Source: a virus
Taxonomy: Duplodnaviria > Heunggongvirae > Uroviricota > Caudoviricetes
Length of the DNA: 19,618 nucleotides
Virus record (IMG/VR): IMGVR_UViG_2526164662_000035
Location: 1 to 19,618 of that record
Strand: one strand, 5' to 3'
This document shows positions 3,217-19,207 of this stretch, in pieces. Both the position numbers and the translations under genes were made by a program. Positions within the stretch are counted from its first letter, which is position 1. Each line of letters begins with the position of its first letter. A model generated the notes under the pieces. That model had not been told where the DNA came from. It saw nothing but the letters and a program-made list of their open reading frames with translations, and did no database searches.

Positions 3217-3236
3217 TATGCTTATCACTTAAAGAC

Positions 3237-4106
<870 letters not shown>

Positions 4107-5579: not shown

Positions 5580-5583
5580 TCAT

Positions 5584-5848: not shown

Positions 5849-6068
5849 TTAAACGGGTTAATCAGTTTCTCCATTTGAAAGAAAAAAGACTTCTGTACTG
5901 TTTGATATCACCGCTATTTTCTTATTTTCTGTGCAGGTCGTAGTGGGACAAAACTGAGACACATAAGGCCTCACAATGGCTTGCAAGGCTTTACATGTTT
6001 TGATGTGGTGGGACGTGTGAGCGCAGTGTTGATGGGGTAATACTTTGAATTAGAAGCGGATTCTTATG

Positions 6069-6114
6069 ATTCGTAATGCGAAGGTCGTAGGTTCGACTCC
6101 TATTATCGGCACCA
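6069..6114 (+). other. thrW: partial tRNA-Thr(CGU) (thrW): 3' 46 nt from the anticodon loop to CCA; att remnant
   Basis: attcgtaatgcgaaggtcgtaggttcgactcctattatcggcacca equals the 3' part of E. coli thrW as I recall it. The upstream sequence does not match the 5' half (GCCGATATAGCTCAGTTGGTAGAGCAGCGC). Confidence 0.85.
6096..6114 (+). repeat. attL core: 19-bp direct repeat (thrW 3' end)
   Basis: It is identical to 19063-19081. Confidence 0.8.
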
Positions 6115-6721
6115 TCAAGAAAATCAATAACTTAGCTTAACTTCTCTAAGAAATTGTATCTTCTGTTATCACTTACAAACGCCTATACGTTGTTATGGGC
6201 TTTGGTAGTGTAACACGTATGGGCGAGTAGTTCCCAGGCTCAACCTCGTAACAAGTTCCTTTGAAGCTGGAAGACGTGCCACCGTCTCTAAACCTTCTAC
6301 CAAAACTCTTAGCAAGATGTTCCACACCTGGCGCGGTGTCCAATGATGCTACACGTCGAGATGACGTCGCAGAGGATAAACAGGCTAAATGATGGGAAGA
6401 GTTTTAAGTGCAATAGTGGATTAAAGCCCACCTCTTCAAAACCTAACTTGATCGGGAAAGAATCAAGCTCTAGCACGGTTTCGTCCACCGGAGTACAACG
6501 GGTGCCTGATAAGAGAAGAACTGCTAAGACTTCATAGCTTTTGTGAAAAAGCCCTTTTTAGTGGATATGCCTACGGCGCTTATTTTTTGGTATAACCATC
6601 AAAGGCGCTTTATGGCTCCTATTGTCTTGAAAATGTATCTTTACTTGTATTGTGTTTTATGCGTAGTCTCCCTGTGTAGTATGTAACTTGTTAATTTTCA
6701 TATGAATACAGAGGCAACACG

Positions 6722-6874
6722 ATGAAAAACATTGCAGCTATAAAACGTAATAACCGCAAGATTCACGCTCGTAAGTTCCTGTCTACGCCAGAGGGAAAAG
6801 CCTGGCTAGAGCGTAAACAGCGAGAGAACGAAGAAAGAAAACTCCTTAGTGAGTTGAAATGGCTTAAGGATTGA
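6722..6874 (+). CDS. small basic hypothetical protein (50 aa)
   Basis: The ORF encodes MKNIAAIKRNNRKIHARKFLSTPEGKAWLERKQRENEERKLLSELKWLKD. A GAGG lies about 8 nt upstream of the ATG, and a strong hairpin follows the stop closely. It falls below the 60-aa cutoff of the ORF track. Confidence 0.4.
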   Translation: MKNIAAIKRNNRKIHARKFLSTPEGKAWLERKQRENEERKLLSELKWLKD

Positions 6875-6883
6875 ATCACCAGT

Positions 6884-6927
6884 AGGCGCATAACACATCC
6901 AGCAATCAAAGATGTGTTTGTGCGCCT
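6884..6927 (+). terminator. long hairpin downstream of the 50-aa ORF
   Basis: aggcgcataacacatc (6884-6899) pairs with gatgtgtttgtgcgcct (6911-6927) across an 11-nt loop. The stem is about 16 bp with one bulge. There is no clean U-tract; T-rich sequence begins about 20 nt later. Confidence 0.45.
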
Positions 6928-7019
6928 GATAGTGAAATTATTAAAGTTTTTTAGTTAATGTAGCCATTGCATGAACGATGATCGCTAGTGAATCGATTTT
7001 ATCTCGAGGGGTAAAATAG

Positions 7020-7115
7020 ATGAGGTATATGATGGTAACAATTACAGCTAAAGTAATTGTGGTTCTGCAGGTTTTTAAAATGGATAAGATAAAGCGCATA
7101 GATACCCCCTATTGA
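7020..7115 (+). CDS. candidate small hydrophobic peptide (31 aa)
   Basis: The ORF encodes MRYMMVTITAKVIVVLQVFKMDKIKRIDTPY, and GAGGGG lies about 8 nt upstream of the ATG. The only support is the SD-like sequence and the peptide composition. Confidence 0.2.
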   Translation: MRYMMVTITAKVIVVLQVFKMDKIKRIDTPY

Positions 7116-7424
7116 TTTAACAACAACAAGGTATCATTTATTTTTTATTGCATGCAATGTGCAAATTTTCACATATAATAGCTTACTATTCACTTTGCAT
7201 GGTGTCAACAAGATGATGTGTTGTTTTGTTTGATTTGTTCAAGATAATATTTCATTTTCTCATCTATATAACTTGTGTTTTAGATAATTTCACTAATTGT
7301 AAAAGTTACGTATTGCTTAATAGCTGCCTTTTTATCTGAAATCGGCGCAAACGTGATCAATGTTTAACGCGAAGATCAGCGGCGTCAGGTCCACGCAGCG
7401 ACAATTCTCAAATATCAGGAGGCA

Positions 7425-7976
7425 TTACGCTTCCTGCTCTTTCTTGATACGTTGCACCGTCTGTGTGCTGACACTGAAATCTTTTGCTACGCTCCGAATT
7501 GATCCACCATTCGCGAGAGCGGCAACAATTCCCGCTCGATCAATTGCTTTTCCATTACCACGTTTTGCTATACGTCCAGCGGCCTTAGCTGCGGCAATCC
7601 CCTCACGTTGCCGCTCAAGCATCATTTCACGTTCCATTTGTGCCACTGCTGCAAGCACTGTGAGCATCATATTCCCTGCGGGAGAGTTCTTCCCTGTCTT
7701 AAAGTCTTCTTTATGGAAATGCACAGACACGCCGCGCTCTGTTAATTGCTCAACCGTTGCCAGTAGGTCGGCTGTATTACGGCAAAGTCGATCAATGCTG
7801 TGAACATGCAAAACATCACCTTCACGCACATAGTTCATCATTGCCTCAAACTGTGGGCGCTGGGTATTCTTGCCTGACGCTTTATCTTCAAAGACTTTAT
7901 CAAGAGTTACTCCAGCTAATTGACGGTCTGTGTTTTGTTGGACAGTCGATACCCTAATGTATCCAATATTAGCCAT
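7425..7976 (-). CDS. serine recombinase, resolvase type (183 aa)
   Basis: The sequence MANIGYIRVSTVQQNTDRQ...GDVLHVHSIDRLCRNTADLL...AVAQMEREMMLERQREG...C-terminal HTH (SIRSVAKDFSVSTQTVQRI) is collinear with Tn3/gamma-delta resolvase. I prefer the start at 7976 because AAGGA lies 8-9 nt upstream, whereas the ATG at 7982 is too close to the SD. The C-terminal linker (KRGNGKAIDRAGIV) looks like a resolvase rather than an invertase (GRPPKLT). Confidence 0.88.
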   Translation of the reverse strand: MANIGYIRVSTVQQNTDRQLAGVTLDKVFEDKASGKNTQRPQFEAMMNYVREGDVLHVHSIDRLCRNTADLLATVEQLTERGVSVHFHKEDFKTGKNSPAGNMMLTVLAAVAQMEREMMLERQREGIAAAKAAGRIAKRGNGKAIDRAGIVAALANGGSIRSVAKDFSVSTQTVQRIKKEQEA

Positions 7977-7990
7977 TTTCATTTTCCTTC

Positions 7991-8110
7991 TGTGTTGATT
8001 TGTGTGTAGTGATTATTGATCGTGTTGATTAGGTGTGTAAATGACTTTTTTCACTACGAAATTCGAAGGTTTTTAGTGTGGTGATTTAGCCTGCTTTATC
8101 ACTACACGTC
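7991..8110. promoter_or_regulatory. repeat cluster upstream of the recombinase gene: candidate res site / operator region
   Basis: The direct repeat gtgttgatt(t/a)g(t/g)tgtgta occurs at about 7993 and 8022. gtgtagtgat (8004-8013) is inverted relative to atcactacac (8098-8107). Degenerate copies are tcactacg (about 8051) and agtgtggtgat (about 8073). The position immediately 5' of the resolvase gene matches the Tn3-family res layout. Confidence 0.35.
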
Positions 8111-8174
8111 TTGCATGAGAATCATGTAGTTATGCTTTGGTAAAATTAGCAAGCTATTAAATAGCGTGTTTATT

Positions 8175-8196
8175 TTGAAAAAATTAATTTTTTCAA
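8175..8196. repeat. 22-bp perfect AT-rich palindrome ttgaaaaaattaattttttcaa
   Basis: Read directly from the sequence. It is flanked by an imperfect extension (cgtgtt...aacacg). Confidence 0.9.
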
Positions 8197-8504
8197 CACG
8201 TGAAAGGAACTTGTTCGACAAATAATAGATTGATTTTTAATCAACAATTTCTGATAGTGCTCTGTAAGCCACATTACACAAGGCGCAGCGAAAGTGATGT
8301 AAAAGTGAAGAAAGCTAACATTGCACTTTTAAGCTACTTTTCATTGAATTTTTAGTATGGAATTACATAGGGATTAATCATCAATTAATCTTGAATTTAA
8401 GCCTGTTTTAGATGTTTAATTTTTGATAGCAAGAAACACTTTTAGAAGATCATTGCACAGATGTTATGTGATAAATGGATGTAACGGTAGGTCACTGTGA
8501 ACTA

Positions 8505-8641
8505 CCCCCCACAGAATTCTGTTATCCTTAACTTTTAAAGAAATATGCACCCTAACAGAAAACTGTTACCCCAACCCTAACAGAATTATGTTAGACACCC
8601 CCACAGAAAACTGTTAGCCACCCCTACAGAATTTTGTTACC
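8505..8641. repeat. five iterons (consensus CCC-N-ACAGAA-WWNTGTTA-NCC): candidate replication origin
   Basis: The copies are acagaattctgtta (8511), acagaaaactgtta (8555), acagaattatgtta (8580), acagaaaactgtta (8603) and acagaattttgtta (8626). Spacings are 44, 25, 23 and 23 bp, and each copy follows a C-run. A strongly AT-rich stretch follows at 8642-8710. Confidence 0.8.
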
Positions 8642-8711
8642 TATTAGATCAACTATCAAACTACAATTAAATTATCTTTTATAAATTCTTTTATCTTTAA
8701 AGAATAATTAT

Positions 8712-8746
8712 AGGGATACCCGTTAGGGGAGTCTTCGACTATCCCT
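8712..8746. other. compact multi-hairpin element next to the iterons and AT-rich tract
   Basis: An outer stem agggata/tatccct encloses ccc-gtta-ggg and agtc-ttc-gact hairpins. This was read directly from the sequence and the function is unknown. Confidence 0.4.
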
Positions 8747-9500
8747 TAATCTATTGGCATTCGCCAGAACCTTGCACAAGTTAGAGTGTTAGTCGTTAGA
8801 CTGCTTGTCATAACACATAGTTTTTTGTTTGTTGATGTTAGTTAGTAGATCTATGTTCGCTAATGCCGCTCACAACGAATATGTAATCTACTATGTGCAA
8901 ATAGCCTACGGCTTGCGTAAGGCTAAATAGTCTTGCGCTGTGCGCAGAACGATAATTAACTAACTACCATCTAACGATCATCAATCTATTTAAGAGAAAA
9001 TCTATTGTGCAATACTCTGACGAGTGCAATAACCTTGTGTGCTACGCGTTAGCGATGTTAGCACATAGACACAGACAACAACCAACAACAAACAAAAAGA
9101 ATGGTTTTAGTAGTTGAAGGTTAAATAAGATTCTACCGCTTAAATCAAGCCGTAGGCGAGCTAAACGTATATAAGGTAGGGAAACACTTAGCGGTAATAG
9201 ATTAGCTCGTTATAGAGTTTCTGAGAGCTTTGCAGGTATTTTATAAGATGTCTGAAATTAGATTTTATCTATCATCATCTTCCCATATACCTAACAAATA
9301 CAAAATAACCCCCTTAAATAAGCCTCTGGCGAGCTAAACAGCCATTACATAAGGGAATGTATTGTTTTTATCAAAACCTCGTTAGAACGCGTTTTAGAGC
9401 GTTTTAGACAATAATAAAGAATAGCACTACACATGAGAGCACGAATTGCTAAGAAATATCATAACTTACTGAAAATGATCAATATTTATATGGATAGGGG

Positions 9501-9529
9501 TTGACAAAAGCTTTTAGTCGTGGTAAAGT
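9501..9529 (+). promoter_or_regulatory. sigma-70-type promoter of the early operon
   Basis: TTGACA (9501-9506) and TAAAGT (9524-9529) are separated by a 17-bp spacer. This is the only near-consensus -35 element upstream of the 9650 operon. Confidence 0.55.
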
Positions 9530-9539
9530 AATATTAGGG

Positions 9540-9558
9540 ACAGAAAACATTCTTATCC
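9540..9558 (+). promoter_or_regulatory. iteron-like sequence overlapping the predicted transcription start (candidate autoregulatory operator)
   Basis: acagaaaacattcttatcc shares acagaaaac with iterons 2 and 4 and ...ttatcc with iteron 1. It lies 11 nt downstream of the -10 element. Confidence 0.4.
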
Positions 9559-9582
9559 TCTAAGTAATTAAACCAATGCACC

Positions 9583-9624
9583 GCACTTTGAAGCCCAAGG
9601 CTTGCAAGGTGTCTTTTTCTTTTA
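9583..9624 (+). terminator. intrinsic-terminator-like hairpin and U-tract in the leader of the early operon (attenuator candidate)
   Basis: The stem pairs 9584-9595 with 9599-9611 (aagcc/ggctt plus 7 more pairs, one bulged G, loop caa). It is followed by tctttttctttt. It lies between the promoter and the AGGAGG RBS at about 9637. Confidence 0.55.
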
Positions 9625-9649
9625 ACCAAATAGAATAGGAGGTTAATTA

Positions 9650-9850
9650 ATGAAGTATTACACTCCACAGGATGTAATCGAAGCCTGGAAACGTGGTGAG
9701 ATCAATCGTTTTAAAGTAAGGATGAACAGGAACACAGCGCGACGCTGTGGTTATCCAGAGCGTGAAAAATGCTTTGACGATGCACTAAAAATTATTGATG
9801 AATTAAGAAAAAATGAAAAAGGATCTGAAAAAGAATCTGAAACAGAGTAA
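9650..9850 (+). CDS. hypothetical protein (66 aa), first gene of the early operon
   Basis: A strong AGGAGG SD lies 7 nt upstream. The protein has a charged C-terminal tail and no motif I recognise. Confidence 0.6.
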   Translation: MKYYTPQDVIEAWKRGEINRFKVRMNRNTARRCGYPEREKCFDDALKIIDELRKNEKGSEKESETE

Positions 9851-9869
9851 AGAAGAGAAGGAGAAAACT

Positions 9870-10040
9870 ATGAGCGAAACTACAGAAAAGAAAAGACAAC
9901 CACGCACTTGCTTTCATATTCCTGATGAAGTATTTCAGGTGTTGTTTAAAGAAGCCAGAAGTAAACGTATCACTGTTACAGATTACATTCTTGATATGTT
10001 GAAAAGAGAGGCTGAAACACTCTCAAACAAAAGCAAGTGA
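9870..10040 (+). CDS. putative ribbon-helix-helix (CopG/Arc-like) DNA-binding protein (56 aa)
   Basis: The start at ATG 9870 follows GAAGGAG. The sequence RTCFHIPDEVFQVLFKEARSKRITVTDYILDMLKRE fits a beta-alpha-alpha RHH layout. The longer ORF from 9813 overlaps the previous gene and lacks an SD. Confidence 0.55.
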   Translation: MSETTEKKRQPRTCFHIPDEVFQVLFKEARSKRITVTDYILDMLKREAETLSNKSK

Positions 10041-10093
10041 TTTTTATCACCATAGTAGCGCCGTAGAGCGTGATTACATCAAGGAGATTTTTA

Positions 10094-10663
10094 ATGATTA
10101 ATGAAGAACAATTTGTAAAAGTTCCTATGTGGATTCTAAAAATAAGCCAAGTAAACGGGCATAAATTTACAGATAGTGCTAAAAACCTTTACTGCTATTT
10201 GAGAGGGTTTGATCGTGCATTTCCCTCTTACGCTAAGATAGGCGATGTTTTTGGCATAACACCAAGAGCAGCAGAAGAAAGGGTTAAGAAATTGCTCGAA
10301 ATGGGATTAATTATAAAAGATGCACGACCAGGAAGCTCTAACCTTTATCGAGTGCTTGATATTCCAAAAGGAGAATCATCACTACCTGATCCTTCTGAGA
10401 AAGAAGACGAATCTAATGAAATATTGAATGTTTCCGAAATCATCGTTGAAGAAGAAACACAGGAATCAGAGTTCCCTGAGCGGCCCGAAATTTTTACTTG
10501 GCTTCTTTCCCTTGATAAGAAGAAACCACCGCACGAAGAAACAGAAGATTTTGTAAAACGTGCATTAGATTCAAAGAATATCTATCTTGAGAAACAGGCT
10601 TTTCACGATCTGATAATATCTCTAAGAGAAAAAAGTGAAATATACGATTCAATACCATTCTAA
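10094..10663 (+). CDS. winged-helix DNA-binding protein, candidate replication initiator / iteron-binding protein (189 aa)
   Basis: The start at 10094 follows AAGGAG. FVKVPMWILK...AKNLYCYLRGFDRAFPSYAKIGDVFGITPRAAEERVKKLLEMGLII resembles the N-terminal wHTH of phage/plasmid Rep and replication-O-type proteins, followed by an acidic linker. It lies downstream of the iterons. The functional call is an inference. Confidence 0.55.
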   Translation: MINEEQFVKVPMWILKISQVNGHKFTDSAKNLYCYLRGFDRAFPSYAKIGDVFGITPRAAEERVKKLLEMGLIIKDARPGSSNLYRVLDIPKGESSLPDPSEKEDESNEILNVSEIIVEEETQESEFPERPEIFTWLLSLDKKKPPHEETEDFVKRALDSKNIYLEKQAFHDLIISLREKSEIYDSIPF

Positions 10664-10672
10664 GGAGAATAA

Positions 10673-10942
10673 ATGACTTATAACATCACTATAGGAAACA
10701 AAACTATTGAAATAACTGAAAGCGGATACAACATTTTAAAAGCTATTTTGGACATAGAGTTCTCACCCCCGACAGTGGTTAGCTTTTGTAGTTTAGGCGG
10801 CTACAGCGCACAACATGTGAATCATTGGTTAAACCATTTTACATCGTTCGGTGTGCTGGATTATGAAGGGATTAACCACACTACATTTCGTCTTTTGAAA
10901 TTAAACAAAGATTTTGAATTGTTTATCACAAACAATCAATAA
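10673..10942 (+). CDS. hypothetical protein (89 aa)
   Basis: An AAGGAG SD is present and the gene is tightly packed after the previous one. No motif recognised. Confidence 0.55.
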   Translation: MTYNITIGNKTIEITESGYNILKAILDIEFSPPTVVSFCSLGGYSAQHVNHWLNHFTSFGVLDYEGINHTTFRLLKLNKDFELFITNNQ

Positions 10943-11038
10943 CAACAGATCGGGCAATACATATGGCAAATGCATTTATGGCGATATTCATCGTAACAAT
11001 GGTATCAAGTTTTTATAATCCACATAAAAAGAGAGAAA

Positions 11039-11422
11039 ATGGGAAGAAAGAAAAAGAACAACTTAAAACGTATTGAAAAAAACAGTAACTTCAATTCAAC
11101 AAGACAACGTCCACCGACACACACCAATAACGAAATTCCAGGGGAAGAGATAATATTTATTCTTGAAACAGAATCCCCTGAAATAAGCGATGAAGAACAA
11201 GAAATAATCAAATCAATGCCAGGCGTTTACTTTCGCCCAAGAACAAGAAAACAAACAATAATTTCTGATGGCACTCTGAAACGTTGGCAGCTTTTAGGGT
11301 TTAGCTCCTATCATCATTTTTTGGGATTTAACGCTTTCAATAATTGTGTAGGTGGTGCATCGGAAGTCGATCTGATGGCTCATTTAGAAGCTACATTAGC
11401 TTCTAACAAACGCTCTAACTAA
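11039..11422 (+). CDS. hypothetical protein (127 aa) with a basic N-terminus and an acidic middle
   Basis: The ORF is on the operon strand and starts MGRKKKNNLKRIEK.... No motif recognised. Confidence 0.5.
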   Translation: MGRKKKNNLKRIEKNSNFNSTRQRPPTHTNNEIPGEEIIFILETESPEISDEEQEIIKSMPGVYFRPRTRKQTIISDGTLKRWQLLGFSSYHHFLGFNAFNNCVGGASEVDLMAHLEATLASNKRSN

Positions 11423-11437
11423 TAAAAGGATGGTCGT

Positions 11438-11683
11438 ATGTATAAGCGCCCAATGAAAATATTCGAAAAAGGAAAAATAATGATTGGCTATATTCAAGAA
11501 ACACAATTATTTCAGATGATCCTGTCTGATGCAAAAAACTATGCTGAGTTAATCCGACTGGCAAAAGAAACAGAAGACTACGAAGCATTAGAGCGTTATC
11601 GTGATGAAGTGCTGACGCTCAAGACACCTTTTAACATCGTATTGAATATGATTAATGATGCATTACAAGGAGAAGCCGCATAA
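11438..11683 (+). CDS. hypothetical protein (81 aa)
   Basis: An AAGGA SD is present, and the stop overlaps the next start (ATAATG at 11680-11685). Confidence 0.55.
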   Translation: MYKRPMKIFEKGKIMIGYIQETQLFQMILSDAKNYAELIRLAKETEDYEALERYRDEVLTLKTPFNIVLNMINDALQGEAA

Positions 11684-11991
11684 TGGAAGAAGATATTAGC
11701 AATGCAATGGAACAACTTTTAGATCTGACTATCTCACTACAAACAAGAATAAATCAAGCCTATTCAGATTTATGCGATTACACGCTCTCTCAATGCGTTA
11801 TTAGCTTAATGAAGGTGAATGTAAGCCTTGACGATTTTATCTCTCTGGTGAGCGATTTAGAGCTAATTGAGGACGATGCCAAGATGTGCACTCAAACCAT
11901 CACAGACACCGCCAGCACGTTAAAGGCTGCAAGTGAAGAGATTCAGCAATTAGTAGATGATTTAGCAAAAAGTGCTATTCCCTCTAAATGA
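11683..11991 (+). CDS. hypothetical acidic helical protein (102 aa), last gene of the early operon
   Basis: It is translationally coupled to the previous ORF. No motif recognised. Confidence 0.55.
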   Translation: MEEDISNAMEQLLDLTISLQTRINQAYSDLCDYTLSQCVISLMKVNVSLDDFISLVSDLELIEDDAKMCTQTITDTASTLKAASEEIQQLVDDLAKSAIPSK

Positions 11992-12263
11992 TAATGAAAA
12001 TCATTTGCATTTATATAATAAAAATGTTATATTTGTATTAAGGGTAGATAAAAAGGTTTTGACTGGTGTTAATCCTTCTACTGTCATAAATCCCTGCATA
12101 TGGAAGGTGATAGCCTCAAGGGTTGAGTGGCATTAACCTCTAACAAATATTACCTTCCATCTCTCAAGAAGTTTTAGAATAATCATAACTCCCTCTTTGA
12201 TTGTTGATTGTTTCTACGTTGTGTTGATGAATGTTGTTAGGCATTGTGCTTAATTTTGATAAA

Positions 12264-12308
12264 AGCGGGTAGGTGTTATCTCCTTGCCCTTCCCGCTCTT
12301 ATTTTTCA
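12264..12308 (+). terminator. possible terminator after the early operon
   Basis: agcggg (12264-12269) pairs with cccgct (12292-12297) and is followed by cttatttttc. The loop is long (22 nt), so confidence is moderate to low. Confidence 0.35.
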
Positions 12309-12734
12309 TCTATGCTTATCCTAAAGCTCCTTATTTTGTCCGAAAACATTAAAGAGCCTTACACTGATAGTTATATTTTATAACTATTTACTAACATCAT
12401 TAAACTCTTATTTAATGACAGAAGTTAGTAACAGAATAATCTATTAAGTTGTTGTCAAAAAACTATCATCTGCATAGCGTTAGCCGCAAGCAGAGAGAGT
12501 TTAGCTAAGAATTGTGCAATAACCTTTGGAAATATTGATAGCAAAACGGGTTTTATAGACTGCAAATCTATAATCTTTGGTTGTAAAAACGCTTTTTCTG
12601 AAACGGTAGATTATTGTTGGTGTAGTTAATCCCTATTAAAATTTAATCTGTGAGTAGATTGGAATAGTGATTCCTTAAAATCTGACTGGTGCATCCACAC
12701 CATGAAAGATAGCGGTTAGCCACCGCACCCGAAT

Positions 12735-12790
12735 AGATATTCCTGATTGATTCCGCATGTTTTCCTAAGAGCATGTTTTCAGGAATATCT
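12735..12790. repeat. 12-bp perfect inverted repeat with a 32-nt spacer
   Basis: agatattcctga (12735-12746) pairs with tcaggaatatct (12779-12790). The spacer contains two copies of gcatgttttc, and a third agcatgttt lies near 12815. Confidence 0.85.
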
Positions 12791-12894
12791 GTTCACCCTT
12801 TAAACCTATCTTTAAGCATGTTTAATAAGCATTCTTAGAGATACGTTTAAAACCTCCTCAAGGTTTTACTTATCGCTGTGTATTGCCCGACACG

Positions 12895-12954
12895 TTAATA
12901 AATCCCCCTCGCTATTCTCAGATTGAACCTCTTATAGCCTGGGGGATTTATTAA
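12895..12954. repeat. 14-bp perfect inverted repeat with a 32-nt spacer, about 30 nt upstream of the capsid-module first ORF
   Basis: ttaataaatccccc (12895-12908) pairs with gggggatttattaa (12941-12954). Confidence 0.85.
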
Positions 12955-12982
12955 ATTCCAACATAATGGAATCGTTATATAA

Positions 12983-13192
12983 ATGAAACAAGAAATTATC
13001 CTGAAATATGGCAATGAAAAGTTAACACTAACTGAAGATGTGTTGAATGCTACAGCCTACGCGCTTGGTATCACTCCCACAGAATTAAAGAAACAGTGTG
13101 AACGTCTTTATAAGGCTGAAAGCAATAAACCATCTCACCAAGATTTGATTAATGCTAAAGCTCAACAAATCAAACAATCTAAGGAAAAATAA
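12983..13192 (+). CDS. hypothetical protein (69 aa) preceding the head genes
   Basis: The ORF is on the strand of the structural genes, and its stop overlaps the next start (TAATG at 13189-13194). No obvious SD is present. Confidence 0.45.
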   Translation: MKQEIILKYGNEKLTLTEDVLNATAYALGITPTELKKQCERLYKAESNKPSHQDLINAKAQQIKQSKEK

Positions 13193-13566
13193 TGGCTATT
13201 TTAAAATTAAGCGATGTTTTCCTACATCGTAAAAGCATCACTGACGTAGTGAGCTATGCAACCGACCCTTACGCGGCTGTAGAAAGCAAAAAATTTGCAG
13301 CACTTGCACAAGATGTAACGTGCGGCGACCTCATTGATTCATCCGGCGCTAAATATGTTAGCGGCGCTGATGTTCTTGTCGTTGTGTCTGACTTCGTAAC
13401 TGCTGATTCAAATAAAACAGTTAACGTGCTTCGTGCTAATGCCGGACTCGTTTGCATCAAAGCTGATGCCCTGAATGCCGAAGGCGCTGTAAAAGAAGCT
13501 GCTATTGCAGCTCTCGCTGCTAAAGGCTTCCAGCTTGAAGGCTTCCACTCTGTTTTCACATCTTAA
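13192..13566 (+). CDS. putative head decoration protein (lambda gpD-like position and size, 124 aa)
   Basis: The protein is small and Ala/Val/Gly-rich and sits immediately upstream of a gpE-like major capsid gene, mirroring the lambda D-E order. The call rests mainly on synteny and composition. Confidence 0.5.
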   Translation: MAILKLSDVFLHRKSITDVVSYATDPYAAVESKKFAALAQDVTCGDLIDSSGAKYVSGADVLVVVSDFVTADSNKTVNVLRANAGLVCIKADALNAEGAVKEAAIAALAAKGFQLEGFHSVFTS

Positions 13567-13582
13567 GAAGGAATAAATAATA

Positions 13583-14611
13583 ATGATTATCGGAAATGAA
13601 GTGGTTGATCTTGCTCCACTGTTCGAATTAAACGACTCACGCAATTACCTACTGTCTACTCTGGATTTTACTGATCCTGTGCCTGTAGAAAGTCACAAAG
13701 TGGCTGTTTCCCAGCTTATCGAGAGCAATGAATCTCTGTTCAACCATCCTACAAGCCGTTTTAGCTCTGAGCATAACGTTACTAAGCGTGAGAACGGGGA
13801 AGAATATCTTATTGAAATCCCGTACTTTTTAAGGGAAGACCTGATCAAACCGCAGGACGTGCAAGGCAAACGCAAAGCCGGAAGCTCTATTGAAGAAACA
13901 CTGCCGGATCTGTATGCGGAATATATCGCTAAACACAATGTTGCATTCCAGCGCACTAAAGAAAGCATCCTCGCGGCTTCTCTGTTCTCTGGCAAGACAC
14001 ACACCCCGAAAACTGACGATGTTCTGATCGATTACAGCACTCTGTTCGGTGTGTCTCCAATGACTGCAACCGTTGACGCATCCAGCACCAACACAATGAC
14101 CGTATTCAAGCAATTTGATCAGATGCATACGGATATGATTGCTAAGGCACAAAGCCAGGCTGCAACCATTGAGCGTGTTGTTGTGTTCTGTAAACCTGCG
14201 GCATTCAACGCTATTCGTTACAGCGTTGGCATGGTTAATGCGTTCCAGTATGCAAGCCCTGTAGACGATGCAAACGTGGTGTTTAATGTGCGTTCTCTGC
14301 TGCCTGGTGTAACTACTTTCACCATTCCAGGAACTAACATTGACCTGATCAAAGTGACTGATCCGCTGCTGCTGGCACATATGACCGCTGACGCTGTAGC
14401 TATTCCTAAACTTGCTAAGGGGGCAGGTGTTTACCAAGCTATTTTTGGTGCGCCTTCCAGTTCATTCGATCTGCTGTCTCAAGGCGCTAAAGAGTATTAC
14501 AGCTATGCTTTCGAATCGAATCGCGGCGACGCAGTGCACGTAGTGACCGAGAATAGCTCGCTTGTGGTTAACCACGGTGTTGGCTTCTCTGTGCAGATCA
14601 CAGTAGCGTAA
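13583..14611 (+). CDS. major capsid protein, lambda gpE-like (Phage_cap_E-type), 342 aa
   Basis: Its length is nearly the same as lambda gpE (341 aa). The N-terminal NYLLSTLDF...VESHKVAV and IEIPYFLREDLIKPQDVQGKR segments follow the pattern of E-family capsids as I recall them. The C-terminal ...GFSVQITVA resembles lambda ...FVSVQLA. A GAAGGA SD is present. Confidence 0.72.
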   Translation: MIIGNEVVDLAPLFELNDSRNYLLSTLDFTDPVPVESHKVAVSQLIESNESLFNHPTSRFSSEHNVTKRENGEEYLIEIPYFLREDLIKPQDVQGKRKAGSSIEETLPDLYAEYIAKHNVAFQRTKESILAASLFSGKTHTPKTDDVLIDYSTLFGVSPMTATVDASSTNTMTVFKQFDQMHTDMIAKAQSQAATIERVVVFCKPAAFNAIRYSVGMVNAFQYASPVDDANVVFNVRSLLPGVTTFTIPGTNIDLIKVTDPLLLAHMTADAVAIPKLAKGAGVYQAIFGAPSSSFDLLSQGAKEYYSYAFESNRGDAVHVVTENSSLVVNHGVGFSVQITVA

Positions 14612-14621
14612 AAAGTGTTAA

Positions 14622-14720
14622 AGACGTTCCCCTACGTCTGGAAATAATCGGGGCAATAAGGGTAAGGGATAATCATATAAGCAAAATATGCGCTGTCTCT
14701 TGCCCTTTTTGTTTTTCTAC
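14622..14720 (+). terminator. hairpin(s) and a long T-tract downstream of the capsid gene
   Basis: A perfect hairpin agacgt/acgtct lies at 14622-14639. In addition, gggcaa (14651-14656) pairs with ttgccc (14700-14705) and is followed by tttttgttttt. The second stem has a very long loop. Confidence 0.35.
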
Positions 14721-14763
14721 TGTCTACAAACCTAAATAAAAATATATATGTGAGAGAAAACCA

Positions 14764-14961
14764 ATGAACACAGAAAATTCACAGGCATTAATTCTTAAAT
14801 CTGTAAAAGAACTGGCAGCTATTAGCGATGACTCAATAATCAATGTCAGTGCCTTATGCAGAATGCTTTCAATTGATGCAAATAATGTGCGTCAGCGTGT
14901 CTTTCAGACTGGATGTAGCACTTTCGAAGCAATCCAATATTATTGCTCTAAAAAACAATAA
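14764..14961 (+). CDS. hypothetical small protein (65 aa), possibly HTH-like
   Basis: The ORF lies between the capsid and tape-measure-like genes and has a weak GAGAG SD. No firm motif recognised. Confidence 0.45.
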   Translation: MNTENSQALILKSVKELAAISDDSIINVSALCRMLSIDANNVRQRVFQTGCSTFEAIQYYCSKKQ

Positions 14962-14995
14962 CAAATAACAATCATAATACAGGGAAACAATTAAC

Positions 14996-16837
14996 ATGTT
15001 AGAGCTAAACGTGGCACGCCTCTCGAACGTTGTCACCTTCGAAGTTAACCGACCATCATTAGAGAAAGCAAAAGCAGAAGTAGAAAAACTTCGTAAACAA
15101 ATGGCGGCGGTGAAAGATATAGAATTGCGTGTTAAGACACATAAACAATCAACCGCTAAAGCAAAAAAAGACGTAGACGATATTGCTAAAAAGCAAGCAC
15201 AGGCTGATAAAGCTAATGCTAAAGCACAATTAGCCGCTCAACGTGTAGTTGCAAGAGAACAAAAAGCCCTGGCAGCACGCAAAGAGAAGGCAGAATTAAA
15301 GCTTTTAGACGTTGGAGCAAGCATTAGTGCAATGCACCGTCTTTCTGTAGCGGAACAATATAAAGCTATTGCACAGGCTAGAGAAATTGCCCTCCAATAT
15401 GAAAGAGGCGCTATTAGTCTGGCACGTATGAATAGCCAAATGAAACGCCTACAACAGCAACAACGTAAGATTAATGGCAATCGTAACGCTCACGCTAAAG
15501 CCTATGCACCTGTTAAGGGTAGCGGGAGTATTGGCGGCGGTGCTGCGGCTGTTATGCTGGGTGGCTTAGGCGCTGGCGCTACGTATATGGCTATGAGCAA
15601 AGCCTCTGAATTTGTTACTAACAGCTTTGCGAATGCTGAAACGCTGGGTGAATTGTATAGCCGTGCGAAGCTGGGCGGTGTAGACGTTAACCAGATGAAC
15701 AATATTGAGCAATGGGCCTACAAAAACGGCGTTGATTCAATGATGGGCGAACAAGGTCGTAGGAAGTATCTCGATCAGATGAAAGATGTACGGGAGAAGG
15801 CTACTAAATCTTATGATGAGGCTGAATATGTAGTTGATAAGAAAACTGGTAAAGGAGAATGGAAGGGCGGCGATAGCGGCATCAATACTTTAATGAATGA
15901 AGGATTCCTAACTAAAAAGGATCTAAAAGACTTTGCTGATAATCCGGCTGGTCTGGTTAGTAAAGCAGTTCAGGGAATGGTAGCTAAAGGCTATTCAGAT
16001 GCACAAATCGGTAGTCGTCTGGAAGATCTGGCTGATGATTTGATGCTCACCTCTAAATACTGGACACGCTCCGCTAAAGAAGTGGAACAATCAGCACGAG
16101 AACAACGAGAATCAGGGCGCTGGGTAACGCAGGCACAACAGGAAAGCGTTATTAAATTCCGTGAACTGAATAATGCACTTAGTGGGCTTTCTGACTCACA
16201 AGGGATCGCCTTTGTTGATGGCTTTATGAAATCTCTTGATCCGAAAGTGATTGAAGAGTTTAAAAAGAGCATGGTTGCAATGCTGCCAATGTTTACCAAA
16301 TTAGGCGAGGCTATCGGCGGATTGGTTAACGCCGTAATGAAAACAATCAACTGGCTGATGAAAAACGACGAGAAGACGGAAGCTATTCAGAAGAATTTAG
16401 GGGATGCACCGCCACTATCTAACGAAGGAATGAAGCAGAATCTTTCTAATCTCACTCCTGATCAATATAAAGGCGCTGGCACCGGAACAACTAAGCCAGA
16501 TAACAGCAATTCCCTGGTTAACACTATTAAAAGCTGGTTTATGCCAGAAGAAACGGTAGGTGGGGCGCAGGCTGTAAATCAATACAGTCTCGAAGGACAA
16601 AATATTGCAAATCTGAAACAGAGTGCAGCACAACAAGCTTTCAAGGCTCCTTCTTACACCTTTGCACCTGTTATTAACTTCAATCCAGAATTACAAGTAA
16701 ATGCAGAAGTGCCGCTAACTATCGAATCAGACACCGGACGATTGAGCGAATTTATCGACTTCAAATCAAAGGCATCTTCCGCTGAGTTTAGCAAGCTATT
16801 AACGCTGGGTGTTATGTCAGGCGGGTCAACCTATTAA
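14996..16837 (+). CDS. tape-measure-like protein (613 aa)
   Basis: It has an N-terminal Lys/Ala/Gln-rich coiled-coil region, a Gly-rich hydrophobic segment (GSGSIGGGAAAVMLGGLGAGATYMAM), a long helical middle and a C-terminal ...FAPVINFNPELQVNAEVPLTIESD block. This is the typical organisation of phage tail tape measure proteins. The call rests on composition and architecture only. Confidence 0.6.
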   Translation: MLELNVARLSNVVTFEVNRPSLEKAKAEVEKLRKQMAAVKDIELRVKTHKQSTAKAKKDVDDIAKKQAQADKANAKAQLAAQRVVAREQKALAARKEKAELKLLDVGASISAMHRLSVAEQYKAIAQAREIALQYERGAISLARMNSQMKRLQQQQRKINGNRNAHAKAYAPVKGSGSIGGGAAAVMLGGLGAGATYMAMSKASEFVTNSFANAETLGELYSRAKLGGVDVNQMNNIEQWAYKNGVDSMMGEQGRRKYLDQMKDVREKATKSYDEAEYVVDKKTGKGEWKGGDSGINTLMNEGFLTKKDLKDFADNPAGLVSKAVQGMVAKGYSDAQIGSRLEDLADDLMLTSKYWTRSAKEVEQSAREQRESGRWVTQAQQESVIKFRELNNALSGLSDSQGIAFVDGFMKSLDPKVIEEFKKSMVAMLPMFTKLGEAIGGLVNAVMKTINWLMKNDEKTEAIQKNLGDAPPLSNEGMKQNLSNLTPDQYKGAGTGTTKPDNSNSLVNTIKSWFMPEETVGGAQAVNQYSLEGQNIANLKQSAAQQAFKAPSYTFAPVINFNPELQVNAEVPLTIESDTGRLSEFIDFKSKASSAEFSKLLTLGVMSGGSTY

Positions 16838-16884
16838 TCATCACTGTGGGGCGGTTTAGCCCCCTTAAATAAGGATTACAAATT

Positions 16885-17562
16885 ATGGCAATGGGTCCGT
16901 TAACCATTGGTCGCCCGACTGAGGCGAAAATCAACAGCACAAGCAACGATAGCAACGGTAGAACAACTAAAGGGGGTAACGGCTTTGCGATCATTACCTC
17001 TAACCTCGGCAGTGGTGCAAATGCTGCTTACAATGACTACCAGGCATTATCATTTGATAGCGTGGAATCGACGAAAATTAGCCGAAATGCAGACGTTACA
17101 AGCTATGCCGTCGAATCAGGATCAGAAGTTAGTGATCATGTTCAAATACGGAATAACAAGTTCACATTACAGGGGCGTATCTCTGAAACAGTATTGAAGC
17201 TCAATCCCGATATGATTAAGAATGCGGGAATTAACGGCAATAGACGTATGCTTATGCTTGAATACCTAAATCAGTTGATGGACAGTCGCCAACCTTTCCT
17301 ACTTGTCACTGAGTTAAAAAATTATGACAACGTTGTGTTAGTTGGCATGTCTTACGAAGAAGAAGCAAGCGAAAGCCTATTGTTTACTCTTGATTTTGAG
17401 CAAATCCGTCTTGTCTCTAAAGCAACTACAAGCGCAATTGCGGTAAAAACAGCACCAAATAAATCTGTAGGAGGTCAGGTTAAAATGCAGGTAAATACAA
17501 CAGAACAGAAAAATCAAAAAAGCCCAGGGCAAGACGTTGTAACGCCAGTATTTAAACAATAG
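16885..17562 (+). CDS. putative tail-tip/baseplate (Dit-like or Mu gp43-N-like) protein (225 aa)
   Basis: It lies directly after the tape-measure-like gene. The segment SFDSVESTKISRNADVTSYAVESGSEVSDHVQIRNNKFTLQGRIS resembles the N-terminal motif of Dit-like / DNA-circulation-type tail proteins (xFxxVxxxxxxxxxxVTxHPVExGxxVxDHxxxxPxxLxLxGxVS), as recalled from memory. Confidence 0.4.
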   Translation: MAMGPLTIGRPTEAKINSTSNDSNGRTTKGGNGFAIITSNLGSGANAAYNDYQALSFDSVESTKISRNADVTSYAVESGSEVSDHVQIRNNKFTLQGRISETVLKLNPDMIKNAGINGNRRMLMLEYLNQLMDSRQPFLLVTELKNYDNVVLVGMSYEEEASESLLFTLDFEQIRLVSKATTSAIAVKTAPNKSVGGQVKMQVNTTEQKNQKSPGQDVVTPVFKQ

Positions 17563-17603
17563 CCTTAAACACCTATGAAACGCTCTGTAACGAGATAATC
17601 ATA

Positions 17604-17635
17604 AAAGAGGCATTAGTCTATATTGAAGCCTCTTT
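17604..17635. terminator. bidirectional hairpin between the convergent structural operon and the integrase
   Basis: aaagaggc (17604-17611) pairs with gcctcttt (17628-17635) across a 16-nt loop. A- and T-rich flanks lie on both sides. Confidence 0.5.
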
Positions 17636-17642
17636 ATTACGT

Positions 17643-18920
17643 CTATAGCGTTGTTTTACGCCTTAAATTTGATTTTTTATTGATTGATAAGCCTTTCTCT
17701 ATTTCAGGGTAGCGTAAAAGCTCAATATATTTTTTAAGCTCTACTGGAGAAGCTGCATTCTTGCTATATGTGCGGAATGTTTCTGTATTGCCGCGCTGAT
17801 GGCCCAAAATTAAAGCTATGCGGTCCTCTGGAATTTGATTTCGATCAAGAAGCTGTGCTACTCCGTGTCTCAGAGAATGAAACACTTTCCTTTCTGTTCC
17901 CTTTTCCCCTAAAGCCTTTCGTTTAGCTCTTGTAAATCGTTGTGTATGCCACGTAGAGCGTTTACCGTCAGCACGTTCTGTAATGCTGGCGTGATAGAAC
18001 AAAAAGCCATTGTGAGGCTTTTCACGAAGAGATAACACCAATGGAGTGATAAGGCTATGCACAGGCACAAGACGTGCCGCAGCTTTCGTTTTTCCCTGTG
18101 TGATTTCAAAACACAGCACACCTTCGATCTCTTTCACATCGTCTATTGTGAGACTTGCTATCTCATTGATCCGCATACCTGTATATAAACCGATAAGACA
18201 CAAAGCCGTCATTTCTTTGTTTTCTGCTGAATTACCGGAAAATACTTGCAACACCTGCAATAGCTCTTTGTTAGAAAATGCCTCGTAGCTCTCTCTACTT
18301 TGTGCCACATCAAGCCTATGCCCTCGCCAGGGGGAGAGCGCCCTTTCTGGCGCATCGTGGTAACGTGATGAAGCTAATTCCCATAGCTGGGCCATTGGGC
18401 TGATATAATTTGCAATTGATTGTTGTGAAAGAGTTTTTTGCATGTGTTCAATCCAGCCTGTAACAGTGGTGCGGCTTACATCTTGCAATGCAATATCAGG
18501 CTTTTTACGGTAGGAGAGAAACATCTCTACCGCTTTTCTTGCCTTAGCTAAAGTGGCTGGCTTCTTCTTCGTGCTGTTAATTGTCAGGTAGATTTCAAGA
18601 ATTTTAAGCAATGACGGACACGAAGACGCTGTATCTTGCATTCTGGTAGCTGTTTTGGCGTATTTAGCCTTACTGCGTAACAGTTCCAGCGTGTTTTCTA
18701 TTGTGCTGTTTACAGGGGCAACACTCTCCCGTAAGCAATGGTATTCATCTGCAATCTGATCACGCTTTCGACGTGCCACACGAAGATTACTTGTGTGTAG
18801 ACTTCTGACAAACGTCCTTTTTCCTTCAAAAAAGGGCTGCATATACACAGGCAGCGTGATCCTTAAATAGTAGTTACCGTAAGAATCACAGATTAAGTAT
18901 TGGTTAGGCTTGTATCTCAT
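17643..18920 (-). CDS. tyrosine recombinase / phage integrase (425 aa from the preferred start)
   Basis: The catalytic signature is present: ...LYTGMRINEIASL..., ...HSLRHGVAQLL..., ...ILGHQRGNTETFRTYSK (R...HxxR...H...Y). I prefer the start MRYKPNQY at 18920, which has GGAG 5 nt upstream; the ORF is open to 19007. The gene lies about 140 bp from the right att repeat. Confidence 0.9.
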   Translation of the reverse strand: MRYKPNQYLICDSYGNYYLRITLPVYMQPFFEGKRTFVRSLHTSNLRVARRKRDQIADEYHCLRESVAPVNSTIENTLELLRSKAKYAKTATRMQDTASSCPSLLKILEIYLTINSTKKKPATLAKARKAVEMFLSYRKKPDIALQDVSRTTVTGWIEHMQKTLSQQSIANYISPMAQLWELASSRYHDAPERALSPWRGHRLDVAQSRESYEAFSNKELLQVLQVFSGNSAENKEMTALCLIGLYTGMRINEIASLTIDDVKEIEGVLCFEITQGKTKAAARLVPVHSLITPLVLSLREKPHNGFLFYHASITERADGKRSTWHTQRFTRAKRKALGEKGTERKVFHSLRHGVAQLLDRNQIPEDRIALILGHQRGNTETFRTYSKNAASPVELKKYIELLRYPEIEKGLSINKKSNLRRKTTL

Positions 18921-19020
18921 AAAATCTCCGGCTAAAGTGTCGGAGCGTTTGTAATGTGAAAATTGATTGTGACGCATAGAAAATGATGATTTTTCTATAA
19001 GATTCAATCAATTAGTAATG

Positions 19021-19081: not shown

Positions 19082-19207
19082 TTAAAATCAAAGAGTTACC
19101 CCATATTTAAATACACCACGTTTCCTCCTGTGCCGCATTTGTGCCATTGTAACCTTGGCAATTCATCAAAATACTGTTCTGACATCAGGCAGTGCAGGTG
19201 CAGCTAT

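Follow-up and report, generated by a model that had tools for sequence, protein, structure and literature searches.

Why does an island with capsid genes of its own carry about 1 kb of DNA without genes directly upstream of them, and what are the inverted repeats in this DNA for? The window analyzed here, a stretch of 19,618 nucleotides recorded as a Caudoviricetes virus, contains a 13-kb island whose att repeats (20 bp each) lie at 6096 and 19063 and which is integrated at tRNA-Thr in E. coli. Carriers of the island include strain CAU16175 and 272 genomes that were found by searching. Its late operon encodes p69, p124, the major capsid protein, a tape-measure-like and a Dit-like protein, the start codon of the first late gene being at 12983. 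The product of the gene directly upstream of the gap is acidic, consists of 102 aa and matched no Q family. Our analysis indicates that the gap probably contains a promoter and, downstream of it, encodes a long, folded leader RNA with stop signals, which would control the switching on of the capsid genes of a phage-parasitising island.

A sequence-only reading of the locus had reported that no ORF of at least 60 aa lies between the early operon and the head genes, and this was confirmed for 11992-12982. The largest ORFs of the gap are one of 54 aa with a GTG start, which overlaps the end of the gene before it, and one of 43 aa on the minus strand. None of the small ORFs is conserved as a gene, their start codons being lost or their frames shifted in other copies, and a 36-aa minus-strand ORF was rejected on both grounds. 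Comparison of the gap with 50,697 phage records revealed no similarity; among phages and plasmids only chance A+T-rich matches and two records of the same island (one plasmid, one chromosome-sized) were found. No Rfam family reached its gathering score in the window, the best matches of a permissive E-value search being at chance level (E at least 0.2), and a second gap also gave nothing above chance. Covariance models of large structured non-coding RNAs (GOLLD, ROOL, HEARO, OLE and others) produced a GOLLD score of 14.2 bits versus a gathering score of 150 and nothing else, and a search for tRNA and tmRNA was negative.

The inverted repeats exceed chance, as two perfect ones of at least 12 nt with loops of up to 60 nt were observed versus a mean of 0.01 in 300 shuffles, and four of at least 9 nt versus 0.39. 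The three repeats described earlier are all present and extend beyond their original limits, 12100-12108/12152-12160 to 13 nt (92% complementarity), 12735-12746/12779-12790 to 16 nt (12731-12746/12779-12794) and 12895-12908/12941-12954 to 21 nt (at 90%). The GTGT-N8-ACAC dyad was located at 12878-12893, the repeat within the first loop was recovered as GCATGTTTTC at 12755 and 12771, with AGCATGTTT again at 12815, and the terminator-like element at 12264-12308 does fold as a G+C stem between an A-tract and a U-tract. The arms of the two longest perfect pairs are indeed exactly 32 nt apart, but this length is not conserved, the loop of the first (hairpin A in Table 1) measuring 32, 33-35 or 38 nt depending on the allele. 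A single partner shared by the two hairpins, which had been deduced from the equal loops, is thus not supported: the equality is allele-specific, hairpin A is a covarying hairpin with loop motifs, and hairpin C has the shape of a terminator. An iteron-like string near 12431 (TAACAGAATAATCTATTA) proved to be at chance level, with three mismatches to the consensus of the island's real iterons. Matches with three mismatches number 27 in the window versus 10.7 expected, the excess coming mostly from the true iterons, i.e., five copies of 23-24 nt at 8504-8642, which together with an A+T-rich stretch occupy 8504-8720. An iteron-type origin within the gap was also rejected, as 11950-13050 has no family of direct repeats of about 17-24 bp with at least three copies.

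Table 1. Predicted elements of the gap between the early and the late genes (positions in the window).
Feature	Position	Strand	Characteristics and basis
Predicted promoter P1	12005-12033	+	Sigma-70 consensus scan; -35 TTGCAT 12005-12010, 17-nt spacer, -10 TATATT 12028-12033
Small 5' leader hairpin	12053-12077	+	Fold; inner stem 12059-12063/12068-12072
Hairpin I5	12100-12160	+	Fold; 13-bp outer stem around a CUCAA-GGG-UUGAG hairpin and an internal loop with CCUCUAACAA
Putative intrinsic terminator T1	12259-12307	+	Fold and energies; A-tract, AGCGGG 12264-12269/CCCGCU 12292-12297, U-tract CUUAUUUUUC
A+T-rich middle segment	12310-12685	+	Near-invariant; no structure above chance; includes ATTGTGCAATAACCTT at 12511-12526
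Hairpin H0	12687-12702	+	Read from sequences; stem UGGUG/CACCA, invariant loop CAUCCA
Hairpin H1	12712-12726	+	GCGGU-uagcc-ACCGC; in folds of every allele
Hairpin A	12731-12794	+	16-bp stem GAAUA.../...U(A/G)UUC; loop with conserved GAUUCC and CCUAAGAGC
Hairpin B	12799-12851	+	~25 bp, imperfect, mismatches at fixed positions
Hairpin Hx	12878-12893	+	GUGU/ACAC, conserved loop UUGCCCG; invariant ACUUAUC just before (12869-12875)
Hairpin C, putative terminator T2	12895-12962	+	Folds; invariant AACCUCUUA in loop
Short hairpin	12955-12972 (element 12955-12982)	+	Folds; AUUCCA/UGGAAU, hides the sole Shine-Dalgarno-like GGAA; start codon after it

In a consensus scan, P1 was the sole promoter-like site on the + strand from the early genes to 13300, with none detected between it and the late genes. 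Transcription would start at about 12040 (AAGGGUAG...). The spacer and the -10 differ between alleles while the promoter is kept, as TTGCAT-17-TATATT or TTGCAT-17-TATAAT. The helper-activated late promoter that had been considered for the region is not evident: conservation on the + strand is limited to one promoter, a near-consensus host sigma-70 one at the far 5' end. Other candidates were also discarded. A second internal + strand promoter near 12614-12642 has a -35 confined to the allele of this window, a minus-strand transcript ending at T1 would start from a predicted promoter (12639-12610) that is not conserved, the key A of its -10 being altered in most alleles, and the T4-type late promoter TATAAATA gave no informative pattern in phage or island.

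The production of an RNA, working terminators, regulated read-through and its regulator are all predicted features of the mechanism that we propose. Host RNA polymerase would initiate at P1, right behind the last early gene, and produce an untranslated and highly structured + strand leader RNA. Most transcripts would end either at T1 (about 12307, an RNA of ~270 nt) or at T2, i.e., hairpin C (about 12955). With T2 placed some 28 nt ahead of the first late gene, the capsid operon would be expressed only by read-through. Hairpins H0, H1, A, B and Hx and the invariant loop motifs, including that of C, may constitute a platform recognized by a factor that lets the polymerase pass. Such a factor could be a protein or an RNA and could originate from the helper or from the island; alternatively, it may process or stabilize the read-through message.

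The two terminator-shaped elements differ in their conservation. T1 is identical in all copies (100%) and, on the basis of its modelled fold, probably acts as an intrinsic terminator; because it is symmetric, it is potentially bidirectional. Its GCGGGTAG was compared by inspection with the ops core of RfaH (GCGGTAG) and has one G too many. Hairpin C shows one compensatory change between alleles in its outer stem and one in its inner stem (read directly). The U-tract following C is weak in the allele of this window (AUUUAUUAAAUU) and strong in other alleles (CUUUUUAUUU), so T2 may be leaky here. Upstream of T1, I5 is nearly invariant in all copies and folds at -24.6 kcal/mol on the + strand versus -16.9 on the - strand, and the 5' hairpin carries three linked substitutions in other alleles (GAC->AGT at 12061-12063) that retain A-U or G.U pairing on the + strand. 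A BoxA/Nus motif (GCTCTTTAACAA, up to three mismatches) was rejected, with 24 matches versus 28.6 expected and none on the + strand of the leader.

Evidence for hairpins at the level of RNA comes from the comparison of 45 copies. In an alignment that had been fitted to the model's own structure, 95.1% of the hairpin cells of the E. coli copies are paired versus 82.1% in shuffles, and 15 pairs are changed on both sides, values that none of 500 shuffles reached; slid controls gave 34-48%. Each hairpin is represented by just three independent alleles in the 45 copies, so that the covariation reflects few events, and a metagenome search added none to the known three. Hairpin A is maintained through compensatory changes, its three stem alleles differing in sequence and all being fully paired (10 of 16 pairs changed on both sides, 100% of cells paired), and hairpin B has 5 of 25 pairs changed on both sides with 91.9% of cells paired. 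The stem of H0 becomes UUGUUG/CAGCAA in other alleles around an unchanged loop TGCATCCACA, and that of Hx is different in all three alleles with its loop conserved. In general, the loop motifs stay invariant while the stems change. Furthermore, pairs that depart from Watson-Crick take the form of G.U on the + strand, which therefore folds much better than the other, as seen in the z-scores of 12700-12962 (-9.5 versus -6.1) and in the energies of hairpin A (-28.0 versus -18.3) and of allele b2 of hairpin B (-20.4 versus -6.7). DNA palindromes also keep complementarity, and the specific argument for RNA thus consists only of the G.U asymmetry and the conserved loops.

We hold it to be highly improbable that the palindromes are DNA sites, be it operators or activator sites of a helper-dependent late promoter or sites of a serine recombinase. 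Inverted repeats are typical where dimeric proteins bind, a copy of ATTGTGCAATAACCTT recurs at 9004-9036, near the origin and the early promoter region, and the island does encode a serine recombinase (7425-7982). However, every imperfection is a G.T on the same strand, arms of 16-25 bp and 30-nt loops with conserved motifs are unlike operators, and no promoter-like site follows the hairpins. In addition, none of the best-matching records listed has the segment inverted, the matches being single-piece. An invertible segment between the 12-nt inverted repeat at 10950/12879 was likewise rejected, no inverted copies being present among the assembly matches listed.

By the standards of phage RNase III sites, hairpin A, with its 16 bp and an inner stem, and hairpin B (~25 bp with fixed mismatches) would be long enough for double-strand-specific cleavage. 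The hairpins could accordingly be read as signals of RNA processing or stability, either RNase III sites or protective 3' or 5' stem-loops, setting the half-life and the translation of the late message, and the small hairpin, which hides the sole Shine-Dalgarno-like GGAA upstream of the first late gene, would agree with such a role. We hold this explanation to be quite improbable, as it does not account for two terminator-shaped elements with U-tracts nor for the invariant single-stranded loop motifs.

The layout expected for a regulated leader is also found in other genera. In all relatives examined with an intact upstream flank (Escherichia sp., Buttiauxella, Kluyvera, Scandinavium, Citrobacter, Klebsiella, Serratia, Cronobacter, and Enterobacter), a TTGACA/TTGCAT-type promoter is located at the equivalent place after the preceding gene, in other genera as TTGACA-17-CATAAT, TATAGT or TAATAT. 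The same relatives carry an intrinsic terminator 30-90 nt upstream of the first late gene, and its stem covaries (GGGGC/GCCCC, GGCGAC/GTCGCC, GGGCUAC/GUAGCCC). The order of promoter, structured leader, terminator and late genes is therefore shared by leaders that have no nucleotide similarity to this window. A leader segment of the relatives shows compensatory changes in 11 of 36 predicted pairs, and CUCCUAAGA(G) also appears in hairpin loops of Klebsiella, Enterobacter, and Kluyvera leaders. A covariance model of A plus B found no matches in distant relatives and phage pieces, and homology with the shorter leader of a related E. coli lineage was not significant (z of at most 1.5).

Conservation along the gap is uneven. 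No part of the island is more conserved than the core at 11900-12670. The hairpin part, with its three alleles, is the most variable part of the gap, and similarity between alleles stops at about 12949. Within the core, the middle segment has a mean pairwise column identity of 0.94-0.995, above every coding part of the island, a folding z-score of -0.8 and no conserved ORF. The leader model leaves this segment of about 390 nt, near-invariant and not detectably structured, unexplained.

Extreme conservation of a 600-nt core and a position just upstream of the head genes, as for lambda cos, are what a cos/pac packaging site for the helper terminase would have in its favor, and such a site had been suggested for the gap. 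Nevertheless, we regard it as extremely improbable. The hairpin part being the most variable is unexpected for a site that has to match a helper enzyme, and the gap has neither a similar phage record nor a match of at least 15 nt anywhere in the complete genome of Mt1B1_P17, a virulent phage and the candidate helper; the leader motifs were also sought in this genome and none was found. By contrast, positions 7339-7417 of the island are 81-87% identical to the boundary of the 328-bp direct terminal repeat of Mt1B1_P17, and the match takes in the first 52 nt of the packaged phage genome. We thus believe that 7339-7417 is a far better candidate for the packaging site than the gap.

It has also to be considered whether the gap encodes one or more stand-alone RNAs that base-pair in trans, the downstream genes being secondary. 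Such RNAs would not conflict with the leader model, and both readings could hold at once; we judge this one unlikely. The candidates would be the ~270-nt RNA from P1 to T1 and/or a processed 3' piece ending at C, the target would be the early mRNA upstream of p127, and the models are the CI RNA of satellite P4 and the IIR transcript of PLE satellites. The Hx loop region (12877-12890, UGUGUAUUGCCCGA) is complementary to 10950-10963 over 14 nt with one G.U, and 12201-12213 is complementary to the adjacent 10930-10942. No E. coli copy shows a change in the target, and 13-17 bp of complementarity are kept by all three Hx alleles. Additionally, runs of at least 12 nt against the 140 nt preceding the p127 homologue outnumber those of shuffles in three lineages (3 versus 0.31 expected in the window, P about 0.005; P about 0.0025 in L007; P about 0.03 in L040), those of L040 and L007 covering the ribosome-binding or start region. 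On the other hand, such runs are missing from five other lineages, a sliding-window duplex ranking did not pick out the target, and chance alone would yield about 0.7 matches of 12 nt over the whole island. Partner covariation is absent because the target is invariant, which also counts against pairing in trans, and Rfam families of phage and satellite antisense RNAs (P4 CI, P1-P7 c4, and IsrK-SeqA type) gave no match.

Returning to the proposed leader, several known systems come close to it. The put elements of HK022 are ~70 nt long and consist of two short stem-loops, separated by a single nucleotide, that follow the promoter closely. In the leader, A and B would be two adjacent stem-loops of the nascent RNA upstream of a putative terminator and could act in cis on the polymerase without a dedicated protein; however, they measure 64 and 53 nt, their distance to the promoter is about 700 nt and more hairpins flank them. 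A put-like antitermination RNA was among the earlier proposals, and a termination/antitermination RNA element does fit best, given the hairpin covariation, the better + strand fold, terminator-shaped C before the first late gene and the conserved sigma-70 P1. Taken as a whole, the earlier interpretation is partly supported.

The late control of lambda involves Q, pR', the 6S leader and tR' (mechanism summarized in PMC4825925). Here as well, a strong constitutive host promoter behind the last early or regulatory gene, an untranslated leader, a terminator before the structural genes and read-through are predicted from the sequence. The leader is, however, ~0.9 kb rather than ~0.2 kb long and has two terminators and a series of covarying hairpins, and no Q-family gene lies next to the promoter (Pfam, PHROGs). 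In P4 immunity, premature termination is brought about by pairing of CI RNA with seqA and seqC (PMC4825925). The island resembles P4, with its PLE leader, in being a satellite without a recognizable protein repressor, with a constitutive promoter, an untranslated leader and, as predicted here, premature termination; complementarity of the leader to another site of the element is also possible, here as a statistical lead. It differs from P4 in lacking any sequence or Rfam match and in that capsid genes rather than replication genes would be controlled. In Vibrio cholerae, the IIR non-coding RNA is the transcript that PLE satellites produce in the highest amount; it is located between two gene clusters, between inverted repeats, and is antisense to ORF leaders (PMC7567579). 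Both are satellites of virulent phages with a long gene-free gap, marked by inverted repeats, between two rightward gene clusters, but there is no homology, and the PLE transcript is defined by RNA-seq whereas ours is predicted. Finally, one promoter of prophage Gifsy-1 gives rise to a short terminated RNA, IsrK, and a read-through mRNA, the short form regulating the long one (PMC4825925). The leader differs from it in having no Rfam match to IsrK and in its genetic context.

Our search found no literature on the island family or on satellites of Phapecoctavirus. To our knowledge, only few systems of satellites of virulent phages have been described (PLE, PICMI), and helper sensing in them is largely open. 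As a tentative and rather doubtful extension, the leader could represent an undescribed class of ~0.9-kb regulatory RNAs serving as main switch of undescribed, capsid-encoding satellites of virulent Phapecoctavirus-type myoviruses, in which the capsid operon would remain terminated until infection and a helper or island factor would act via A, B and the invariant loops, possibly with trans pairing to the early mRNA. If true, the island would have a control circuit that is based on RNA and works without a repressor, an analogue of P4 immunity with an independent origin. Confirmation would establish RNA-level control of satellite capsid genes, provide a new RNA family for curation and offer a handle for locating the helper factor that triggers the island. 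Moving the likely packaging signal to 7339-7417 and having a concrete candidate helper, Mt1B1_P17 and its relatives, makes the system experimentally approachable.

The early operon points in the same direction. Searches of the upstream-encoded p197, p89, p127, p81, p102 and small early ORFs against Pfam and PHROGs revealed no Q or other antiterminator family, and no repressor or antiterminator family was recognizable among the island proteins. The early promoter (9501-9529) is followed by a leader terminator (9583-9624), the same plan of promoter, leader and terminator as in the late gap. Given this shared design, the island appears to be silenced by termination and not by a repressor; both operons look gated by leader terminators, the late leader being unusually long, strongly structured and better conserved than any protein of the island. 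A conserved (T)AGGG start region is common to both island promoters and to phage early promoters.

The most fitting description of the ORF-free gap between the early operon and the capsid genes of this E. coli island (see table) is a structured leader RNA that is new and uncurated. The sequence-only reading had found no ORF of at least 60 aa in it, which our analysis bears out, and the smaller ORFs are not conserved. All inverted repeats that it listed are present, each longer than stated, and perfect inverted repeats of at least 12 nt with loops of up to 60 nt are far in excess of chance (2 observed vs 0.01 in shuffles). The 32-nt loop in each of the two perfect repeats was also confirmed for this window. 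However, loop lengths differ in other alleles, and the idea that equal loops mark a shared partner is not upheld; the iteron-like string in the gap matches at chance level.

Conservation and covariation, named in the same reading as a check on its hairpins, came out in their favour. The same hairpin series (H0, H1, A, B, Hx and C) was recovered in folds of every allele of 12690-12982, and helices A and B carry compensatory changes. Six distinct alleles were aligned under guidance of the structure. In this alignment, which is fitted to the model's structure and holds three independent alleles only, 95.1% of the cells were paired vs 82.1 ± 1.5% in shuffles and 15 pairs were changed on both sides, neither value being reached in any of 500 shuffles. 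When partners were moved by 1-3 columns as a slid control, 34-48% of cells paired. In helix A, 10 of 16 pairs are doubly changed and 100% of cells are paired, while in helix B the respective values are 5 of 25 and 91.9%; the stems of H0, Hx and C show compensated changes too. Because the non-canonical pairs are G.U on the plus strand, this strand folds much better than the minus strand (z-score for 12700-12962 of -9.5 vs -6.1). The loop motifs CAUCCA, GAUUCC, CCUAAGAGC, UUGCCCG and AACCUCUUA are invariant while the stems change, and CUCCUAAGA(G) is also found within hairpin loops of Klebsiella, Enterobacter and Kluyvera leaders.

Features of the island and of the late leader (window coordinates; promoters and terminators as predicted from sequence)
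Feature	Position	Strand	Remarks
Direct repeats	6096-6115, 19063-19082		20 bases, ACTCCTATTATCGGCACCAT
Serine recombinase	7425-7982	minus	
First gene-free gap	7982-9650		
Early promoter	9501-9529		TTGACA-17-TAAAGT
Early leader terminator	9583-9624		stem 9583-9612, U-tract 9613-9624
Early operon			p197 (helix-turn-helix, replication-initiator-like), then p89, p127, p81, p102
Gap under study	11992-12982		after early operon
Promoter P1	12005-12033	plus	TTGCAT-17-TATATT
Hairpin I5	12100-12160		
Terminator T1	12259-12307		A-tract, G+C stem, U-tract
Hairpin A	12731-12794		
Hairpin B	12799-12851		
Hairpin Hx	12878-12893		
Hairpin C (terminator T2)	12895-12962		
Late genes			3' of gap: p69, p124, Phage_cap_E major capsid protein, p65, 613-aa tape-measure-like protein, Dit-like protein
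Tyrosine integrase			last in island order, after Dit-like gene

P1 is the sole plus-strand promoter-like site of the gap. A short variable patch (12016-12040) covers its spacer and -10 element and other alleles read TTGCAT-17-TATAAT there, so the promoter is kept while its sequence changes. At the other end of the leader, hairpin C ends about 28 nt 5' of the p69 start codon, no promoter was found between the two, and CUUUUUAUUU follows the hairpin in two of the three alleles, the U-tract being weaker in this window. T1 has the classical terminator shape and is 100% conserved. Relatives were retrieved via the capsid protein (from Escherichia sp., Buttiauxella, Kluyvera, Scandinavium, Citrobacter, Klebsiella, Serratia, Cronobacter and Enterobacter). 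At the corresponding place, each of them carries a gap of 300-750 nt that lacks nucleotide similarity to that of the window. A near-consensus promoter, e.g., TTGACA-17-CATAAT, opens the gap in those with an intact upstream flank, and an intrinsic terminator with covarying stems lies 30-90 nt 5' of the first late gene in all of them. The early operon follows the same design, with a near-consensus promoter and a leader terminator that lies just 5' of the ribosome-binding site for its first ORF, and no repressor or antiterminator family was recognisable among the island proteins. The most economical reading is that termination and read-through would control both operons, the late leader being the elaborate case; the earlier suggestion of a termination/antitermination RNA is supported in its general form. 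The late leader is best described as a variation on the known promoter-leader-terminator control of late genes. The PLE IIR transcript (PMC7567579) and the P4 CI RNA (PMC4825925) are precedents from satellites and IsrK (PMC4825925) from a prophage, none with Rfam homology to the gap.

An action of the leader RNA in trans was also considered. Two stretches, the Hx loop region and 12201-12213, show complementarity to neighbouring sites 5' of p127 (10930-10963), and such complementary runs exceed shuffles in three lineages and are absent in five. Duplex ranking did not support this pairing, which we regard as a lead only.

A cos/pac site had also been proposed for the gap, which is very probably not the case. 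No similarity was found to phage records, nor any of at least 15 nt to the complete genome of the virulent phage Mt1B1_P17, a candidate helper, and the terminal-repeat boundary of the phage matches another part of the island. Specifically, 7339-7417 shares 81-87% identity with the segment of Mt1B1_P17 that crosses the left boundary of its 328-bp direct terminal repeat, 7366-7417 aligning to the first 52 nt of that genome, and an 81-85-bp piece (7339-7421), just 3' of the serine recombinase gene, has an approximately 81% identical counterpart in more than 100 Phapecoctavirus genomes. Judged by these matches, 7339-7421 is the best candidate for the island packaging signal. A replication origin in the gap was ruled out, since iterons and an A+T-rich stretch sit in the first gene-free gap. 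There, 8504-8720 holds five 23-24-nt direct repeats (CCC-TAACAGAAnnnTGTTA) followed by the A+T-rich stretch and is likely the origin. Only some island copies have this iteron pattern, so that iterons and the N-terminal domain of p197, which is variable, may covary.

Further links to this phage were found. The 344 nt at 10064-10407 (5' untranslated part and about 105 N-terminal codons of p197) match Mt1B1_P17 20692-21035, where a 328-aa hypothetical protein begins, at 100% identity, and phage BI-EHEC at about 95%, which points to recent exchange between island and virulent phage. Within the Dit-like gene, 17113-17148 and 17395-17465 share 86% identity with a Mt1B1_P17 gene. The capsid protein is closest to major head proteins from Phapecoctavirus and related myoviruses (about 150 kb), with 25% identity over its full length. 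Given these likenesses and that of the terminal-repeat boundary, the island appears to be a satellite of virulent phages of the Phapecoctavirus type, from a family as yet undescribed; no published description was found in the literature. It encodes its own capsid, tape-measure-like and Dit-like proteins, with no terminase, portal or recognisable repressor among its genes. About 20 early promoters of Mt1B1_P17 (1.7-12.3 kb, minus strand) read TTGACA-N17-TAAGAT/TAAAGT/TAAACT-N8-TAGGGCGGC, and both island promoters (9501-9545, 12005-12050) share this arrangement and have (T)AGGG in their start regions. They may mimic those of the helper.

In all, 272 complete E. coli genomes carry the gap, at 87-99% identity and without annotation, and it also occurs in IMG/VR and metagenome contigs. 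In an alignment of 12 copies, no other stretch of the island is as conserved as 11900-12670 (mean pairwise column identity 0.94-0.995 vs 0.3-0.9 in the flanking genes), while 12670-12982 falls into three diverged allele types. Two very different capsid modules follow the same leader core: islands of the other type (e.g., L003, at a tRNA-Gly) keep the gap up to about 12949, within the right arm of hairpin C, and thus the gap travels with the early side and the mosaic junction lies at the end of this hairpin. Between the other type (L003, L012-L016) and the window (12983-14611), the p69 homologues share 31% identity, and tblastn does not detect the capsid protein. The end of similarity at about 12949 marks a recombination hotspot at the hairpin C terminator.

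No structure was detectable in the near-invariant middle segment (12310-12685). It contains one copy of the motif ATTGTGCAATA(ACCTT), at 12511-12526, and two more lie in the origin/early-promoter gap (9004-9014, 9024-9036); the motif is possibly a protein-binding site joining both non-coding regions. Otherwise invariant, the leader core varies in length only through a 14-nt tandem duplication, TTGATTGTTGATTG, in L017 (NZ_AP045173) at the equivalent of 12197, which lengthens a U/G-rich heptad repeat between hairpin I5 and T1.

Starting at 6069, the window matches E. coli CAU16175 at 99.9% identity, in the part of that genome downstream of the tRNA-Thr gene adjoining proA. Of 5426 complete E. 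coli genomes, about 400 carry the island of about 13 kb (6096-19082), which also occurs in several further genera of enterobacteria. Its flanking repeats correspond to the 3' end of tRNA-Thr. The window lacks an intact tRNA gene, and so the insertion at the thrW site is tandem or composite. Left of the left repeat, 1-6068 belongs to a different element with an acyltransferase-like fragment, a GIY-YIG domain protein and an AraC-type regulator. Finally, a contig labelled 'MAG: Bacillota bacterium' (L005, JAEWTL010000083.1) has this E. coli island with 92-100% protein identity and is probably a binning contaminant.
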